This document shows positions 3,605 to 39,438 of a stretch of DNA of 50,868 bases, in pieces. A program made the position numbers and the translations under genes. Every line of letters begins with the position of its first letter. The first letter of the stretch is position 1. Source of the DNA: Eggerthellaceae bacterium (GTDB lineage Bacteria; Actinomycetota; Coriobacteriia; Coriobacteriales; Eggerthellaceae); assembly GCA_045545435.1 (NCBI GenBank), contig JAZQAV010000099.1, forward strand, positions 1-50,868. Direction: 5' to 3'. The notes below the pieces were generated by a model. The model was given only the letters and a program-made list of their open reading frames with translations. It had not been told where the DNA came from and made no database searches.

Positions 3605-4744
3605 GTGAAAGACCCCGCTGACATCGAAAGGTTTTATCGCGCGGGTCTTTTCGATGCGGTTGTGGTGGGCATTTTCAATCAGCGGCAGCGAGAGCAGGTT
3701 GAATATCTGCTGTACGGGAAGGGAATACCCGTGGTTTCCCTTATTCGGTCGCCTGTTTTTAAACCGCTCGAGTTCTTTGAGCAAGCGCCCAGCGAATTGT
3801 CTCTCAAGTGGAGCGGATATAGCCTCTGTGAATTCGAGGGGATGCGCCTGGAGGTGCAACCGCACAGCGGGTATCCGTTTATTTACGACAAGAATGGCAA
3901 CGTGAACAGCGCGTATTGGCTTGACTATCACTTTCTGCAAGAACCCTTTGCGCGCCTGTTCCGCCCTTCCGAAAACGCTGTGGAGGTCGAGCTTGCCGGG
4001 CAGTGGTGCGTGCTGGCAAAGGTGTATGCGAAAAACTACTGGCACTTTACGTTCGAGGTGCTCGATCAGGTGTGGATGCTCGAAAAAAGCGGTTATCAGG
4101 GGAACTATATTTTAAACAAGCCCTCGTTTGCGCCTGAGCTGCTAACGTTGCTGGGCATTGACCTGAAACGGGTGTTTTGGCTTGAAGATTTTGACGAGGG
4201 TACGGCATACCGCATCGAAAGGCTTGTGTGCACCGTTCTTAATAAGAACAATGGCGCGCACTCTGCCAGGGTTTTAACGGAAATGGCGCCGGACATTGTA
4301 CGCAACCTGCCGCCATCTGACATTTCTTATCCCGAACGCGTATACGTGAAGCGCATAGGCACGCGCAAGCTGAATGTTTCGGAAGAGATGCTGCGCCAAT
4401 ACGGATTTGTAACCATAATTCCCGAAGAACTGAGCGTTGCCGAGCAAATCAGCTATTTCCATAACGCCCGTGTTGTGCTGTCGCCGCATGGCGCCAACAC
4501 AACGAACTCGCTTTACATGAAGCCCGGTAGCGTGCTTATTGAAACGTTTCCCAACGAGTACACCATCTACTTCTTTTTGCACACGCTCAGGTTGCAAGGC
4601 GTGCACTATATTCCCCTTGCTGAGTCGAAACTGGATGCGGAAGGTCACCCAGGGGGCATGTTTGCAGATTATTCGATAGATCCCCGTTTGCTGGAAATGG
4701 CAATCAAGAGCGCCATTCAGCTAGCGGGCACAACAAACTGCTAG
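3605..4744 (+). CDS. glycosyltransferase family 61 / DUF563 protein (as given in the ORF track; probably the truncated remainder of a 3449..4744 gene)
   Basis: Motifs typical of DUF563/GT61 are present: NYWHFTFEVLDQVWMLEKSG and SVAEQISYFHNARVVLSPHGANTTNSLYMKPGSVLIETFP. GTG 3605 has no recognisable RBS. Confidence 0.7.
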   Translation: MKDPADIERFYRAGLFDAVVVGIFNQRQREQVEYLLYGKGIPVVSLIRSPVFKPLEFFEQAPSELSLKWSGYSLCEFEGMRLEVQPHSGYPFIYDKNGNVNSAYWLDYHFLQEPFARLFRPSENAVEVELAGQWCVLAKVYAKNYWHFTFEVLDQVWMLEKSGYQGNYILNKPSFAPELLTLLGIDLKRVFWLEDFDEGTAYRIERLVCTVLNKNNGAHSARVLTEMAPDIVRNLPPSDISYPERVYVKRIGTRKLNVSEEMLRQYGFVTIIPEELSVAEQISYFHNARVVLSPHGANTTNSLYMKPGSVLIETFPNEYTIYFFLHTLRLQGVHYIPLAESKLDAEGHPGGMFADYSIDPRLLEMAIKSAIQLAGTTNC

Positions 4745-4774
4745 CCTGGGGCAAGCCCTGGGTGCAACAGCCAT

Positions 4775-6226
4775 CTATTTCTTTGGCGAATGGTAGAACA
4801 ACACGGTAACCAGGGCGCACAGGTTAAACACGGCAACGCACAGCAGCATGTTCTGGTAACCGGCCAAACCGGGCGCGCTGGCGATCATTCCCGTGAGAAT
4901 TGCAGGAGCAACGGTGGTTCCTATCTGGCGAATGAGCGTGATAGTGGCAATGGCGGCAGCGCTATCGGCTTTGTTCGTGTTTTCCAGAATCATGTAATTG
5001 GTAGGGGCGCCCATGGCAAATCCCATGCCCAGGCCCACCACGAATAAGCCAGCAATAAGCGTGGGCATGCTGGGTGCCACCACCGCAATAAGCGCAAGGT
5101 ACAAAAGACCCGCTATGCCAACCGAGAACCCAATAATAAGCACTGGCTTGGGTCCAATTTTGTCGATGGCTTTTCCGCCCAGGGGAGTCACGATGATGGA
5201 TGCCGCGCCAATAGCCAAAATGTAGTAACCGCCCGATCCCAGTGGGGCTCCCATGGCATACTCTGCCATTTCGGGAACAAGCACCAGCGATATCACGAAG
5301 CAGCCAATGAAGAACGAGGCAATCATCACCACCGCGATGGGCTTGCTGTGGAAGTACTCAAGATGAAAGACCGGGTCTTGGGCCTTTTGCTCGGCGAAGC
5401 GGAAGGCAAGCGCGCATACAAGGGCGCTTGCAAAGCAGGCGAGCGTTGGCGCTGATGTGATGCTGGCGGCGAAATTGGTGAAATCGATGCTGCGGATTCC
5501 CAGCAAAAGCAACAGAACAAAAAGCACGAACAGTATTGATCCCGCTACATCGGATGTGCCTGCGGAAGAGGCGGATGCTAGCTTGTGGCCGCGTGCTTGT
5601 TCGGCGGCGACAGCTTGGTCGTTGGGTACGAAGGCGACCGCCATGAACATGATTGCGATGCAAAGCGGAATGCACAAGTAGAACATCACGGGCCAGTTTT
5701 GGATTCCAAAAGCACCCATAATGGCACTGCCAACTGCAGCTCCAAGCACATTTGAAAGGCCCATGGTGGCTGCGGCCATTCCCAAGGCCATTCCGCGTTT
5801 TTCCTCCGGGAAGGTAGCTGCTATCTGCGCGTTTGCGACAGGTATCATGCCGCCGGCGCCAGCGGCCTGCATAACGCGGCCTACCAGCAGCACGTTGAAG
5901 TTGTTGAGGGGTTGCGCGAGTCCGCAGGTTAAAGACCCTACGGCAAAGATGCCGACGCATATAACAAAAATGCGCTTTCTACCGCGGCGGTCGGCCGCCT
6001 TTCCAATGATGGGGATAAGGGCGGCGTAGAACAGCGAGTAGATGTTAATCATCCATATTCCCGTTGCGCCATCAACGCCCAGGTCGGCTTGGACAACCGT
6101 GCGCACGGGTGCAACCGCGCCAAGGTACAGGCCTCCAATAAGTATACCGAGCAAAAACGTAGCGAGTACGGCTCCGGTTTTCGGCGCTCCGTTTGACGGC
6201 GCGCCTTGGGGTAGATCAGCAACCAC
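4775..6226 (-). CDS. MFS transporter, DHA2 (14-TMS drug:H+ antiporter-like) family
   Basis: 483 aa and very hydrophobic. It has the MFS loop motif GKAADRRGRKRIF and the length expected for a 14-TMS protein. GTG start is 9 nt after the upstream gene's stop. Confidence 0.85.
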   Translation of the reverse strand: MVADLPQGAPSNGAPKTGAVLATFLLGILIGGLYLGAVAPVRTVVQADLGVDGATGIWMINIYSLFYAALIPIIGKAADRRGRKRIFVICVGIFAVGSLTCGLAQPLNNFNVLLVGRVMQAAGAGGMIPVANAQIAATFPEEKRGMALGMAAATMGLSNVLGAAVGSAIMGAFGIQNWPVMFYLCIPLCIAIMFMAVAFVPNDQAVAAEQARGHKLASASSAGTSDVAGSILFVLFVLLLLLGIRSIDFTNFAASITSAPTLACFASALVCALAFRFAEQKAQDPVFHLEYFHSKPIAVVMIASFFIGCFVISLVLVPEMAEYAMGAPLGSGGYYILAIGAASIIVTPLGGKAIDKIGPKPVLIIGFSVGIAGLLYLALIAVVAPSMPTLIAGLFVVGLGMGFAMGAPTNYMILENTNKADSAAAIATITLIRQIGTTVAPAILTGMIASAPGLAGYQNMLLCVAVFNLCALVTVLFYHSPKK

Positions 6227-6235
6227 AATAATGTC

Positions 6236-7234
6236 CTAACGCAAAGCGAAGCTACCCAGATAGCGCAACGAAAATGCCTTGTTGCCGCTCAGGGTTTTGA
6301 AGGCGTCGTATCCGCCGCCTTCGCATTCGATAAGATAATGGTAGTTACCCAATTGGGTTTTCTCGGGGCGGTCGTGAACGGCTACGATGCTTAAGCCAGC
6401 GGCGCTAGCCTCGTTCAACAATGCGGTAAGCTGCGAGGCGGGGCCAGTGGCTACGAAGACCATGCGGTCTGCGGGCTTTTGGTTGGGCGCCTCGGTTGAT
6501 AACACGTAAAAACGGGTGACGTTGTCGTCATTCATCTGAATGCTGGGAGCAAGCACCGTAAGGCCGTACAGCTCAGCGGCGGACGCCGATCCAATTGCCG
6601 CACATTGAAGTCCTTCGGATTCGGCGGCTTTACGCGCGCCTTCAGCCGTGGAAGAAACCTCAACCAGCTGGGCGTTGGGAAGGTTTGCTTCGACCCAGGC
6701 CTTTCCTTGGGCGATGCCTTGCTTGTGCGAGTACACAACGGTAATGTCGTCGTACGTTGCTTCGGGTTTTGCCAGTATGTTCTGCGTTATCGGCAGTTCC
6801 ACCTCGCCAACGACGCTCACATTCTCGTGCGCTATAACTTCATCAAGGTATTCGCTTACCGGGCCGCCTATCGTGTTTTCTTGGGGAATGACGGCAAAGT
6901 CGCTATCGCCTACCACCAATGTCGCAATAGACGCGGCAACGTTTTCGCACGGAAGGTACGTCCCCTGCGCATTGAAGAACCGTGCGCAGGCTTCCTGTGT
7001 GTAGGTTCCCTGCGGTCCCAAATAGCTTACGCGTGTTTGCGAATAGTCAAGGTTCTCCGGAGAATCTTGGGAAGATGCGCTCTCTGAGGCGCTTCCCGTT
7101 GATGAAGCTGCGGCGCGGCTTGAGGCGTTGGATGACGCCGCAGATGCGCTTGCGTCGTTTTGAGACGCCGACGTGCATCCGGCAAAAGCTAAAACGCCTG
7201 CCAGCATTAAACTTATCAATCGAATGCGCTTCAT
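6236..7234 (-). CDS. prephenate-dehydratase (PDT) + ACT domain protein carrying an N-terminal lipoprotein signal peptide
   Basis: The lipobox is in MKRIRLISLMLAGVLAFAGC, followed by a Ser/Ala-rich linker. The PDT domain reads VSYLGPQGTYTQEA...AVIPQENTIGGPV...NVTRFYVLS and includes the conserved TRF. The ACT-like tail reads MVFVATGPASQLTALLNEASAAGLSIVAVHDRP...YHYLIECEG. RBS is GAAGGA. Confidence 0.8.
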   Translation of the reverse strand: MKRIRLISLMLAGVLAFAGCTSASQNDASASAASSNASSRAAASSTGSASESASSQDSPENLDYSQTRVSYLGPQGTYTQEACARFFNAQGTYLPCENVAASIATLVVGDSDFAVIPQENTIGGPVSEYLDEVIAHENVSVVGEVELPITQNILAKPEATYDDITVVYSHKQGIAQGKAWVEANLPNAQLVEVSSTAEGARKAAESEGLQCAAIGSASAAELYGLTVLAPSIQMNDDNVTRFYVLSTEAPNQKPADRMVFVATGPASQLTALLNEASAAGLSIVAVHDRPEKTQLGNYHYLIECEGGGYDAFKTLSGNKAFSLRYLGSFALR

Positions 7235-37060: not shown

Positions 37061-37465
37061 ATGAAACGACCGCATGTTGACGGTGGCTTTTTGTTCTGCT
37101 TCGGTCTTAACCTTATCCTGAGTGCATATTGGGCCATTCCTGCGGTGGTTCTCTTCGTGGCGCACGTTATCGCGGGAACCCCGCTTTGGGCTGCTTGGCT
37201 TGCCCTTGGCCTTTGGGTGCTTATCACGTTTGGCATTACGCTGTTTCTGAGCTGGGCTGTTTCACGAGCGCCTGCAGCTGATGCCCAGGGCGCCTATTCG
37301 CGTCGTTCCTCTTCAAGCAATCGAAAAGCAGCTGCGGAAAACGCGCATCATTATGATTCCGTGAACGTCGAATTGCGCACCGTCGAAAGCGCAGAAAACG
37401 TCGCTGTTGAAGGCACAGATAGCGCAGCCGTCGAAGGCGTAGCGAGCAACAATAATTTGGGATGA
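37061..37465 (+). CDS. small membrane protein of unknown function (3 TM segments + disordered tail)
   Basis: The sequence reads FLFCFGLNLILSAYWAIPAVVLFVAHVIAGTPLWAAWLALGLWVLITFGITLFLSW. AAAGGAG RBS. Confidence 0.55.
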   Translation: MKRPHVDGGFLFCFGLNLILSAYWAIPAVVLFVAHVIAGTPLWAAWLALGLWVLITFGITLFLSWAVSRAPAADAQGAYSRRSSSSNRKAAAENAHHYDSVNVELRTVESAENVAVEGTDSAAVEGVASNNNLG

Positions 37466-37568
37466 CGCGGGTATTCTTGGCGCTGTCTCTTGCATCCTGC
37501 GTTTCGAGACGGAGCGATCAGGTATTAGAAAGCGATGCGTCAAAAGCGGGGTTTTAAGCATCGCCCCT

Positions 37569-37644
37569 GAAGTTGTGCGCTGAGCGTCATCTCGAAGTTG
37601 TGCGTTGAGTATCATCCCCGAAGCTGCTTGCTAAACGAGAAATC
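37569..37644 (+). repeat. tandem 25-nt repeat GAAGTTGTGCG(C/T)TGAG(C/T)(G/A)TCATC x2 plus a degenerate third unit
   Basis: Units lie at 37569-37591, 37594-37616 and 37620-37644. The third is degenerate. Confidence 0.75.
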
Positions 37645-37648
37645 TCTT

Positions 37649-37913
37649 AAAAAGAGCGAGTTGTGAGAAGAACAATCATAGTTGCAGTGAAAAACTCGAG
37701 TTGTGAGAGCCGATAGCGAGCTCTTGGTGGCAAAAACTCGAGTTGTGAGAAGTTACGTGTCTGTGGCGAAGGCAGTCTGTATTTTCGATAGCCGTGTGAA
37801 CAGGGGTTGCGGGAACGGAGCATCTGAAAGGGTCCTCTATGTTATGCGGGTTCTTCTCACAATTTGAGTTTTCTACTTCATACAAGATTATTTTTCTCAC
37901 TATTCGAGAGTTG
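37649..37913. repeat. array of the motif AAAA(A)CTCGAGTTGTGAGAAG: three direct and two inverted copies
   Basis: Direct copies are at 37649-37670 (AAAAAGAGCGAGTTGTGAGAAG), 37690-37709 (AAAAACTCGAGTTGTGAGAG) and 37732-37752 (AAAAACTCGAGTTGTGAGAAG). Inverted copies are at 37853-37872 (CTTCTCACAATTTGAGTTTT) and 37891-37913 (TTTTTCTCACTATTCGAGAGTTG). Confidence 0.85.
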
Positions 37914-38145
37914 CAAAAAGTGAATTAATACCGGCGGCAGATGGGCGAGTTGCAGTCGGCAAGCGAGCGAGCTGCCGATTGGCGAGCGGCTCATGGATGG
38001 GTTCGCGCCATACCTGGTAGTGCACCCTACTCGGCGGTTCATACGACTCGGCGACGTACTCGCGTAGACAGTATGCACAAGATGCGATAGGGATTCGTGG
38101 GGGTTTCGTCTACGCGTTGTAGGACCGTTTAATGATAATGGATTT

Positions 38146-39186
38146 ATGGAATACATCATCATCAGTCATAAATCTGCTTTTCGCTATTGGGGAGGGGAGA
38201 AGGCGCATCGTCATCCTGACGAATGCAGGTTCAATTTTGCTCTTTGGGACAACATTGCGACAAAGCTTCCACGCGAACAGGGGCAATTGCTCGATTCGCT
38301 TCGCTCGAGCAAAGGGGAGCTGGATTTACTGGTAAATGACACTTCGCAACGCTGCCATCCAGATGGCCGCGTTGTCCATTACTGGAAAGGTGGTTTTCTA
38401 CCAGGTTCGATGTGCAAAGTCTCCGATGGAGTGCTGGTGGCATCGCCAGAAATGCTATATGTGCAACTAGCGCAAAGCTTAAGCATTCAGGCGGTTATTG
38501 CATGCGCAACGGTTTTGTGCTCGTCGTATTTCCCCGTATGCAAATCGGCCCGCTGTGAAAAGCTCGATGCCGTATTGAGCGGTTCGGCTTCGACAGCTTC
38601 GCTGAAAGGAGATGAAAGAAGGGGGTTCTATCGGCGTCTTCCCCTCACATCAAAAGCGCGTCTCTATGACTTTTTATCAGCGCTCAAAAACCATAACGGC
38701 GTCGCGAAGGCGCGCAGGGCTTTGCGTTGGGCAAGCGAAGGTGCAGCTTCTGCGCGAGAAGCCGAACTCGCGATACGTTTGTTTTCGGCCCGCTGTTATG
38801 GCGGTGATGGTTTGCCTGCGGCTATGCTTAATTTGCCCGTGTATCTTGACGATGCGGCAAAAATGATGTCTGGCAAGCTGTACTGTATAGCCGATTTTGT
38901 GTGGCCGGAAAAACGTTTGATACTGGAATATGACAGCAATCAGCACCATAGCGATAAATCCGCTATGCAGAAAGACTCACGTCGCAGAAATGCCCTTTTG
39001 CATATGGGTTTCGATGTCATGTCTTACACGAACGATATTTTCACGGACCAGCAAGCACGAACAGCGGCTGTCAAGCAGCTGGAATCGCGGTTGTACCCAT
39101 ATGGGCGAAAAAATGCCCGTACTTTTGAAGGCGCAGCGGAAGAGTTGTATCGTGCCGCGCGCGAGTTACCTCGCTGCGTAATTTAG
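38146..39186 (+). CDS. DUF559 (Vsr/restriction-endonuclease-like fold) domain protein with unknown ~250-aa N-terminal region
   Basis: The C-terminus reads YCIADFVWPEKRLILEYDSNQHHSDKSAMQKDSRRRNALLHMGFDVMSYTNDIF, which matches the DUF559 pattern (D..w....l.vE.DG..H). The RBS is weak. The gene looks more AT-rich than its neighbours by eye. Confidence 0.7.
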   Translation: MEYIIISHKSAFRYWGGEKAHRHPDECRFNFALWDNIATKLPREQGQLLDSLRSSKGELDLLVNDTSQRCHPDGRVVHYWKGGFLPGSMCKVSDGVLVASPEMLYVQLAQSLSIQAVIACATVLCSSYFPVCKSARCEKLDAVLSGSASTASLKGDERRGFYRRLPLTSKARLYDFLSALKNHNGVAKARRALRWASEGAASAREAELAIRLFSARCYGGDGLPAAMLNLPVYLDDAAKMMSGKLYCIADFVWPEKRLILEYDSNQHHSDKSAMQKDSRRRNALLHMGFDVMSYTNDIFTDQQARTAAVKQLESRLYPYGRKNARTFEGAAEELYRAARELPRCVI

Positions 39187-39438
39187 GTAGAGGAGGCGAA
39201 GATGGACCTGGTCGCGCGTTCGCGAAGGAAGCAGATACCCCTCATACCACCGTAGCTGGTGCTTTGCGTACTGTGGTGAGGTCACGATTCTCGTCGTCCA
39301 ATATAATGTTACGGGTGAGAGACAAAGTCGAACTCTCGAGTTTTGCAAGCTGGAAAGTGCGCTTCTTGAAACTTATACTGTGCGTATATGCGTGCGTTTT
39401 GGTGTGCGAGCGTTTCGGTCTTTAGGAAGGGGTCAACA

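Follow-up and report, generated by a model that had tools for sequence, protein, structure and literature searches.

A dense array of short repeats was found in the non-coding gap upstream of a gene for a DUF559 protein, in DNA of an Eggerthellaceae bacterium (50,868 nucleotides; the whole stretch that was analysed is called the window below). The array belongs to a little-known family of repeat modules that adjoin one family of nuclease genes in the Coriobacteriia. The feature is real, and it is neither ordinary nor accounted for by a described system. The reality of the repeats, their linkage to the gene family, the conservation of the motif, the existence of copies without a gene, and a DNA-like instead of an RNA-like character are established by the observations presented below. 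Judged from the sequence, the chances are about even that the adjacent nuclease recognises the repeats, which would make the array a DNA-level module of phased sites, and that the gene and the sites form one unit. The comparison with known systems suggests a partnership between an enzyme and its repeats that resembles the REP/RAYT systems and would not have been described before.

The array occupies positions 37569-37914 of the window. It is built from a bipartite motif (about 20-26 nt; an A-run, CTCGAG, and TTGTG(A/C)G) that is present in five or six direct copies and two inverted ones. The array, the partner gene, and a further copy behind that gene have the following layout:

37569-37616, plus strand: tandem pair of two 25-nt units, each with the core variant GAAGTTGTGCG, followed by a decayed third unit (repeat detection, TRF score 75)
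37649-37668, plus strand: direct copy 1, AAAAAGAGCGAGTTGTGAGA (repeat detection; profile match, E 0.015)
37686-37710, plus strand: direct copy 2, AAAAACTCGAGTTGTGAGA, 40 nt past copy 1 (profile match, E 1.3e-4)
37728-37752, plus strand: direct copy 3, AAAAACTCGAGTTGTGAGAAG, 42 nt past copy 2 (profile match, E 7.7e-4)
37753-37852, no strand: centre, 100 repeat-free nucleotides between the direct and the inverted arms (GC 52%; DNA fold z = +1.3, i.e., not self-complementary)
37853-37873, minus strand: inverted copy 1, GAAAACTCAAATTGTGAGAAG on this strand, 20 nt with 90% complementarity (profile match, E 0.036)
37891-37914, minus strand: inverted copy 2, more degenerate, CTCGAATAGTGAGAAAAA on this strand, 40 nt from inverted copy 1 (profile match, E 0.36)
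38146-39186, plus strand: partner gene, encoding 346 aa; N-terminal domain novel, C-terminal domain a Vsr/DUF559 PD-(D/E)xK nuclease (Pfam DUF559, E 9.5e-8)
39326-39350, no strand: lone degenerate copy of the unit 3' of the DUF559 gene, AGTCGAACTCTCGAGTTTTGCAAGC, 18/25 identical to the 25-nt unit; tentative second bracket

All repeats listed in a preliminary description of this DNA were found at their positions by direct reading of 37300-38300 together with repeat detection. The 25-nt tandem units contain AAGTTGTGCG, which has one mismatch to the core given in that description, and their core variant AGTTGTGCG is also present in the locus L119 and in the genome of UBA1367, both of which are treated below. 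AAAA(A)CTCGAGTTGTGAGA begins at 37650, 37690, and 37732, i.e., with spacings of 40 and 42 nt. Direct copy 3 is the left arm of the best inverted pair, in which 37733-37752 and 37853-37872 are 90% complementary and the arms are 100 nt apart; the second inverted match, at 37891-37908, is weaker. The array cannot be a product of chance. Three exact occurrences of the 12-mer core CGAGTTGTGAGA fall within 100 nt, compared with 0.01 expected, and none of 100 shuffles reached three; a 19-mer with up to three mismatches occurs four times, again with an expectation of 0.01. Strong spaced inverted repeats within the 50.9-kb window were found only in the gap of the array. A sequence profile of the unit revealed no further copy in the window; the degenerate match at 39326-39350 came from a comparison with the 25-nt unit, of which it is the best match outside the gap in the whole window, and it lies within a 200-nt gap downstream of the DUF559 gene. 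Because of this degenerate copy, the DUF559 gene at 38146-39186 may be bracketed by its own repeats.

The gap between the genes had been described as lacking a credible ORF, and this was borne out: it has six small ORFs without a meaningful Pfam match (one weak match, E 0.066). It had also been called AT-rich, which is correct for the array (45.2% GC, within the lowest 0.4% of 345-nt windows), but only mildly so for the whole gap, which has a GC content of 49.9% compared with 53.8% for the window. A reading as a coding repeat, in which 42 nt would correspond to 14 amino acids, was rejected, since the units change orientation at the centre and the spacings inside are not divisible by three.

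The genes flanking the array in the window are ordinary chromosomal genes. Those on the left side encode SulP, TelA, a 270-aa protein, and a 134-aa membrane protein, and those on the right side the 346-aa DUF559 protein, a redoxin, and a ferredoxin. The distance from the end of the array to the ATG of the DUF559 gene (38146) is 233 nt. A tRNA search around the array had no result, and promoter- or terminator-like sites in the region were not in excess over chance; the sole promoter-like match is on the opposite strand and is no better than chance. The relatives of TelA have at most 92% protein identity, and the named ones are from Eggerthellaceae or other Coriobacteriia MAGs. Exact protein matches were not found for the two flanking genes, and the species of the window is absent from the collections searched. 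A search for an empty site of the window locus via the TelA relatives retrieved none, and it is uninformative, since synteny stops after the two-gene TelA unit. The presence of short contigs was considered as a sign of repeats, and this argument was dropped because the TelA homologs are likewise mostly found on short contigs.

The partner protein is a member of a family of proteins of about 340 aa with a novel N-terminal domain and a C-terminal Vsr/DUF559 nuclease. Among 53 sequences, no variation was seen at the residues D250, E261, and H268, and almost none at D263. The AlphaFold (AF2) model of the window protein has a pLDDT of 89 and a pTM of 0.87. The fold of its C-terminal domain matches 3r3p (I-Bth0305I; probability 0.99, rmsd 2.7 A), 1cw0 (Vsr), and 3hrl (a DUF559 structure), and the sequence match to I-Bth0305I has an E value of 0.003. 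I-Bth0305I is a multidomain enzyme and is reported to act as a homodimer with a footprint of about 60 bp (PMC3239194). The N-terminal 130 residues modelled alone gave a pLDDT of 85.5. A fold search with this domain against solved structures yielded no match (best E 2.9) and no recognisable DNA-binding fold, and therefore DNA binding by the N-terminal domain is not arguable from homology. The top fold matches of the full-length window protein were Toxoplasma mitoribosomal proteins with low TM-scores, which may reflect the known Vsr-like RAP/FASTK domain relationship (PMC11879112).

Close relatives of the window protein are few, and the closest has 44% identity. A profile search retrieved 57 clusters, the named ones of which are from Coriobacteriia, and an exhaustive search retrieved at least 3,025 representatives at 50% identity (E <= 1e-30), mostly at full length. 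Comparisons of the family with NCBIfam, PADLOC, and PHROGs gave no match, and the family is absent from viral contigs.

Eight loci with genes of this family were examined, i.e., the window, L117, L118, L119, L120, L122, L126, and L131. The family is one of Coriobacteriia proteins, and these loci are only a sample of its members, which at 50% identity form at least 3,025 clusters. In all eight cases a locus-specific motif of 20-45 nt was found in direct and inverted copies at a distance of about 20-400 nt from the gene. L117 and L118 have direct and inverted repeats of 23-28 nt downstream of the gene, and L120 has a perfect 26-nt inverted repeat that ends 22 nt before the ATG. In L119, arrays of CGCACAACTC/GAGTTGTGCG flank the gene on both sides as direct copies of about 150 bp. 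In L126, from Adlercreutzia, two homologous modules that are mutually inverted bracket the family gene and an overlapping YjeF_N gene. The L131 motif of 25-32 nt forms inverted pairs to the left and to the right of the gene; the control gaps of L131 contain none. The motif is thus on both sides of the gene in L119, L126, and L131, and tentatively also in the window. The position of the array relative to the gene varies, and it can be upstream (window, L120, L126, L131), downstream only (L117, L118, L122, and the locus L110 described below; some of them between convergent genes), or on both sides, in either orientation. The separation of the arms is 66-157 nt in the window, L117, L118, L120, L126, L131, and L110. 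In L126 (5049-6272) the family gene overlaps the 407-aa YjeF_N/UDG-like gene by 17 nt, and with both genes between the inverted-repeat modules a two-gene cassette is possible.

P. umbonata (L122, L124, L125) has six palindromic 50-nt units with a period of 73 nt downstream of the gene. L122 (position 5839) and L125 (position 2081) are 99.6% identical over the upstream region, the family gene, and the array, and beyond the outer edge of the array the two strains share only one further, diverged repeat unit (about 70% identity). Because the synteny of the strains breaks exactly there, the outer edge of the array is a rearrangement or insertion junction. Target-site duplications were not seen at nine module edges, and transposase genes were not found across the loci examined.

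The similarity of the repeats tracks the relatedness of the proteins. With full arms, a Mantel test gave r 0.46 and p 0.012; an earlier version, for which short motifs had been picked by hand, did not reach significance (p 0.067). The best arm pairs score 12-13, compared with 8 for the 95th percentile of shuffled arms. The neighbouring genes differ among all family loci with the exception of L117 and L118, and therefore the association of the gene with the repeats has outlasted changes in their surroundings. When L119 was left out of the unit profile, the profile still recovered both copies that bracket the L119 gene (E 0.03 each), and none in control loci. When one detector was applied to all loci, the DNA within 700 nt of family genes had a module density of 0.64 per kb, compared with 0.085 per kb for the remainder, a contrast that is inflated because non-coding DNA is compared with coding DNA. 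The preliminary description had pointed to the adjacent DUF559 protein, and the comparative data indeed tie such arrays to the family of the DUF559 gene. Unrelated perfect spaced inverted repeats also occur in control intergenic DNA of relatives, e.g., in L135 (4676-4851; 27-nt arms, 122 nt apart) and L138 (6759-6948; 69-nt arms, 52 nt apart). Both are intergenic and unrelated to the motif, and they could be invertible segments or other hairpin elements.

A collection of genomes was scanned with a strict pattern of two exact cores at a distance of 20-40 nt. The pattern is expected about once by chance, and it was found at 56 loci because CGAGTTGTGAG recurs in tandem repeats of many phyla, which are of the heptamer type (GAGTTGT)n or have periods of 34-51 nt (L001, L013, L019, L020, L029, L035, L041, L045). 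Unrelated repeats of these kinds in other phyla make up 52 of the 56 loci. The other four are in a single genome, Atopobiaceae bacterium UBA1367, and have the architecture of the window in a cleaner form. In these arrays three to five direct copies of GGAAAG-GAAAA-nnCC-GAGTTGTG-(A/C)G with an exact period of 42 nt are directly followed by four to six inverted copies, and the arrays have up to 11 units. The UBA1367 arrays, at least four in number, are gene-less (no DUF559-family gene within the 8-kb loci), and their neighbours are unrelated housekeeping genes (ABC binding protein, xerC-like/mraW, fba, cysteine desulfurase, nifH-like). The arrays of the window and of UBA1367 share the A-run, CGAGTTGTGAG, and a period of about 42 nt; GGAAAG is not present in the window. 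The observation that the motifs are conserved and the spacers are not, which had been made for the window, holds there, but in UBA1367 the spacers of the units are found again within a locus and from one locus to another. All four arrays of this genome have a T-run (GGAAAGCTTTTTGCC or GGAAAGGTTTTGCC) in place of the A-run in a unit at or next to the centre:

L003, 2079-2185: T-run unit
L006, 2218-2246: T-run unit
L032, 1319-1347: T-run unit
L048, 312-340: T-run unit

The central T-run in each of the four arrays suggests that there is a defined inner module, and not a random amplification of units.

Scans of metagenome and viral sequences with a relaxed two-unit pattern revealed no convincing family member except L110. 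This locus was fetched through the DNA motif alone, and it has three inverted and three direct copies with a period of 43 nt, about 275 nt from a DUF559-domain gene. Only the nuclease domain of this gene is common to the family of the window protein, and its N-terminal part has no match to the family profile. The gene (4301-5331) is apparently split across two frames at about 5011-5230, which indicates either a pseudogene or an assembly error. Repeats of other kinds were also seen on metagenome contigs. L061 has about 18 tandem units of 21 nt at 5930-6300 (GGTCAAAAAGGTCTTCTACGT and variants), which are iteron-like and unrelated to the array of the window. L069, a contig with 60% GC, has three copies of the 26-nt palindrome CACAAGTCCGATGTTTCGGACTTGTG at 269-370 with a period of 42 nt; the palindrome is similar to the core (GACTTGTG), and the architecture is different. 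According to the preliminary description, a REP-like repeat dispersed without positional preference would have spoken against its interpretation. The arrays are indeed dispersed in the intergenic DNA of at least one genome, but a preference for positions next to DUF559-domain genes is also seen.

A structured non-coding RNA with the inverted copies as stems, for instance a repeat RNA of the antitoxin type or an RNA that acts with the nuclease, had to be considered as an alternative, and an RNA stem had been proposed for the best arm pair. The 281-nt region folds better than shuffles on the plus strand (z = -3.2), and both mismatches of the best arm pair are G-U on this strand. However, the same long hairpin forms just as well on the minus strand (z = -3.3), and of the non-Watson-Crick positions in 16 arm pairs, 18 are G-U on the gene strand and 12 on the opposite one, and 35 pair on neither. 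In addition, eight module centres lack self-complementarity (z = -1.7 to +1.3 compared with shuffles), Rfam covariance models had no match at the gathering score or at E <= 1, promoters and terminators are not in excess, and neither the position nor the orientation of the arrays relative to the gene is fixed. An RNA is thus very unlikely, and the stem proposed earlier is not supported. The mismatch pattern argues for a DNA-level element over an RNA-level one, and the features fit paired protein-binding sites, and neither an RNA stem nor a continuous REPIN-type hairpin. The earlier interpretation as an array of sites for a DNA-binding protein is therefore in accord with the evidence. This is not true for its more specific form, an origin or partition site of a former mobile element. 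Remnants of a plasmid, a phage, or an integrative element, be they iterons, a partition site, or arm-type recombinase sites, would be compatible with regular direct repeats that are followed by inverted ones in a locally AT-richer stretch, but the flanks are chromosomal, and no rep, par, or integrase gene is present in the neighbourhood. Furthermore, a blastn search with the gap found no DNA match in 72,556 plasmids and 50,697 phages, the protein family is missing from viral contigs, and the motif is present at several chromosomal sites in UBA1367, in gene-less arrays, so that this origin is the least probable of the explanations considered.

An independent MITE- or REP-like intergenic repeat, the arrays of which are spread by another enzyme or by recombination, would account for the UBA1367 arrays that lie between housekeeping genes with no family gene within 8 kb, as well as for the recurrence of unit spacers within and between loci, which tandem duplication predicts. 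Other spaced inverted repeats in the intergenic DNA of related genomes also speak for it. The proximity to DUF559 genes would then be coincidental, because arrays and genes both accumulate in long, variable intergenic regions. This explanation is nevertheless unlikely in view of the modules at eight of eight family loci, three of them with the motif on both sides, and of the motif similarity that follows protein relatedness. Moreover, L110, although found by its motif alone, has a DUF559-domain gene beside the array, neither a transposase nearby nor a target-site duplication was seen, and the 50.9 kb of the window contain no other copy save the one just after the gene. Somewhat less probable still is that the repeats are operator sites only, at which the DUF559-family protein or another regulator represses a potentially toxic nuclease gene, and that no mobility is involved. 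AbiEi-type antitoxins, which bind paired inverted repeats in their own promoter, are a precedent for such a role, the inverted arms suit a dimeric repressor, and the upstream position in the window, L120 (22 nt before the ATG), L126, and L131 would be appropriate. However, the arrays are only downstream in L117, L118, L122, and L110, in some cases between convergent genes, they can have as many as 11 units, and the gene-less ones have no family gene within the 8-kb loci. In the window, the distance of 233 nt between the array and the ATG and the lone promoter-like match, which is on the opposite strand and at chance level, also disagree with an operator.

For the reading as phased recognition sites of the adjacent nuclease, we infer binding, cleavage, and mobility, which would be connected as follows. 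Several copies of the DUF559-family protein would bind the repeats, and spacings near whole helical turns would place most sites on one face of the DNA. Periods of 31, 42-43, and 73 nt correspond to about three, four, and seven turns; the fit is poorer for the 40-nt spacing of the window (3.8 turns), the 39-nt spacing of L117, and the 25-nt spacing. The inverted arms would permit pairing across the centre of about 100 nt. The nuclease may then nick or cut at or near the repeats, and repair and recombination after this event could copy, expand, and relocate them. The gene and the repeats would be inherited as one cassette that occasionally relocates, and gene-less arrays would remain elsewhere in the genome. 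This would be the logic of REPIN/RAYT, driven by a different type of enzyme. A partnership of nuclease and repeats has, in our view, an even chance of being correct, and the mobility is a tentative and less probable addition. It is also conceivable, though rather doubtful, that the arrays represent a new class of bacterial selfish or domesticated DNA, a non-HUH counterpart of REPIN/RAYT. In it, a Vsr/DUF559-type nuclease, distinguished by its novel N-terminal domain, would recognise its own motif in the phased arrays, and repair induced by nicks or breaks would serve to propagate or maintain the arrays. If true, this would be the first function for a family of at least 3,025 protein clusters.

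DUF559 is among the commonest uncharacterised nuclease domains in bacteria, and a consistent partnership with motif-matched arrays, if true, would offer a testable substrate for a DUF559 subfamily. It would also account for puzzling long non-coding gaps and rearrangement junctions in the annotation of gut and oral Coriobacteriia.

Several known systems resemble the array in part. Among them are the transposon ends of Tn7, Mu, and IS21, which have multiple subterminal transposase-binding sites, and the MITEs derived from such elements. The likeness to these ends consists of direct sites of about 20-25 nt in one arm, inverted sites in the other, and a short core, but a DDE transposase, terminal TG...CA, and a target-site duplication are not present here, and the gene is outside of the inverted pair instead of between the arms. 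As in MITEs, terminal inverted repeats surround a short non-coding core; in contrast to MITEs, there are no target-site duplications (nine module edges) and there is no transposase in any locus. With the EDxHD homing endonuclease I-Bth0305I the partner protein shares the Vsr-like nuclease fold and conserved acidic and His residues, and, as with homing endonucleases, the gene is found in different genomic contexts among organisms. However, it is not located in an intron, an intein, or a phage, but between chromosomal genes, it is accompanied by repeat arrays in place of a single split target, and its N-terminal domain is unrelated to anything solved. The iteron and partition arrays of plasmids also have regular direct repeats, here with periods of 25 and 40-42 nt, together with inverted copies, which is consistent with cooperative protein binding, but the chromosomal context, the lack of a rep or par gene, and the several loci per genome (UBA1367) distinguish the present arrays from them.

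The closest resemblance is to REPIN/RAYT. In these systems two inverted repeats enclose a spacer, repeats of the matching type lie on both sides of the partner gene, gene and repeat types are paired specifically, and copies are dispersed (PMC3337134). Here, too, short inverted motifs enclose a spacer (tens of nucleotides to about 100 nt), the partner gene has repeats of its own type on both sides (L119, L126, L131, and tentatively the window), each gene variant is paired with its own motif variant, and gene-less intergenic copies as well as more complex tandem arrangements exist. The differences concern the enzyme, which is a Vsr/DUF559 PD-(D/E)xK nuclease and not an HUH/Y1 (IS200-like) transposase, and the repeats. 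The spacers do not form hairpins, so that the element as a whole is not a hairpin, the arms consist of several direct copies at helical-turn spacing, and the motif is not a palindrome of the GTAG type. REPIN/RAYT systems have tens to hundreds of dispersed copies per genome and a single-copy partner gene; here, the strict pattern detected at least four gene-less arrays in one genome. Taken together, REPIN/RAYT is the nearest analogue, and the array is not a member of that family; the partnership of nuclease and repeats, if true, would extend the idea of a single-copy enzyme plus dispersed repeats beyond the HUH transposases.
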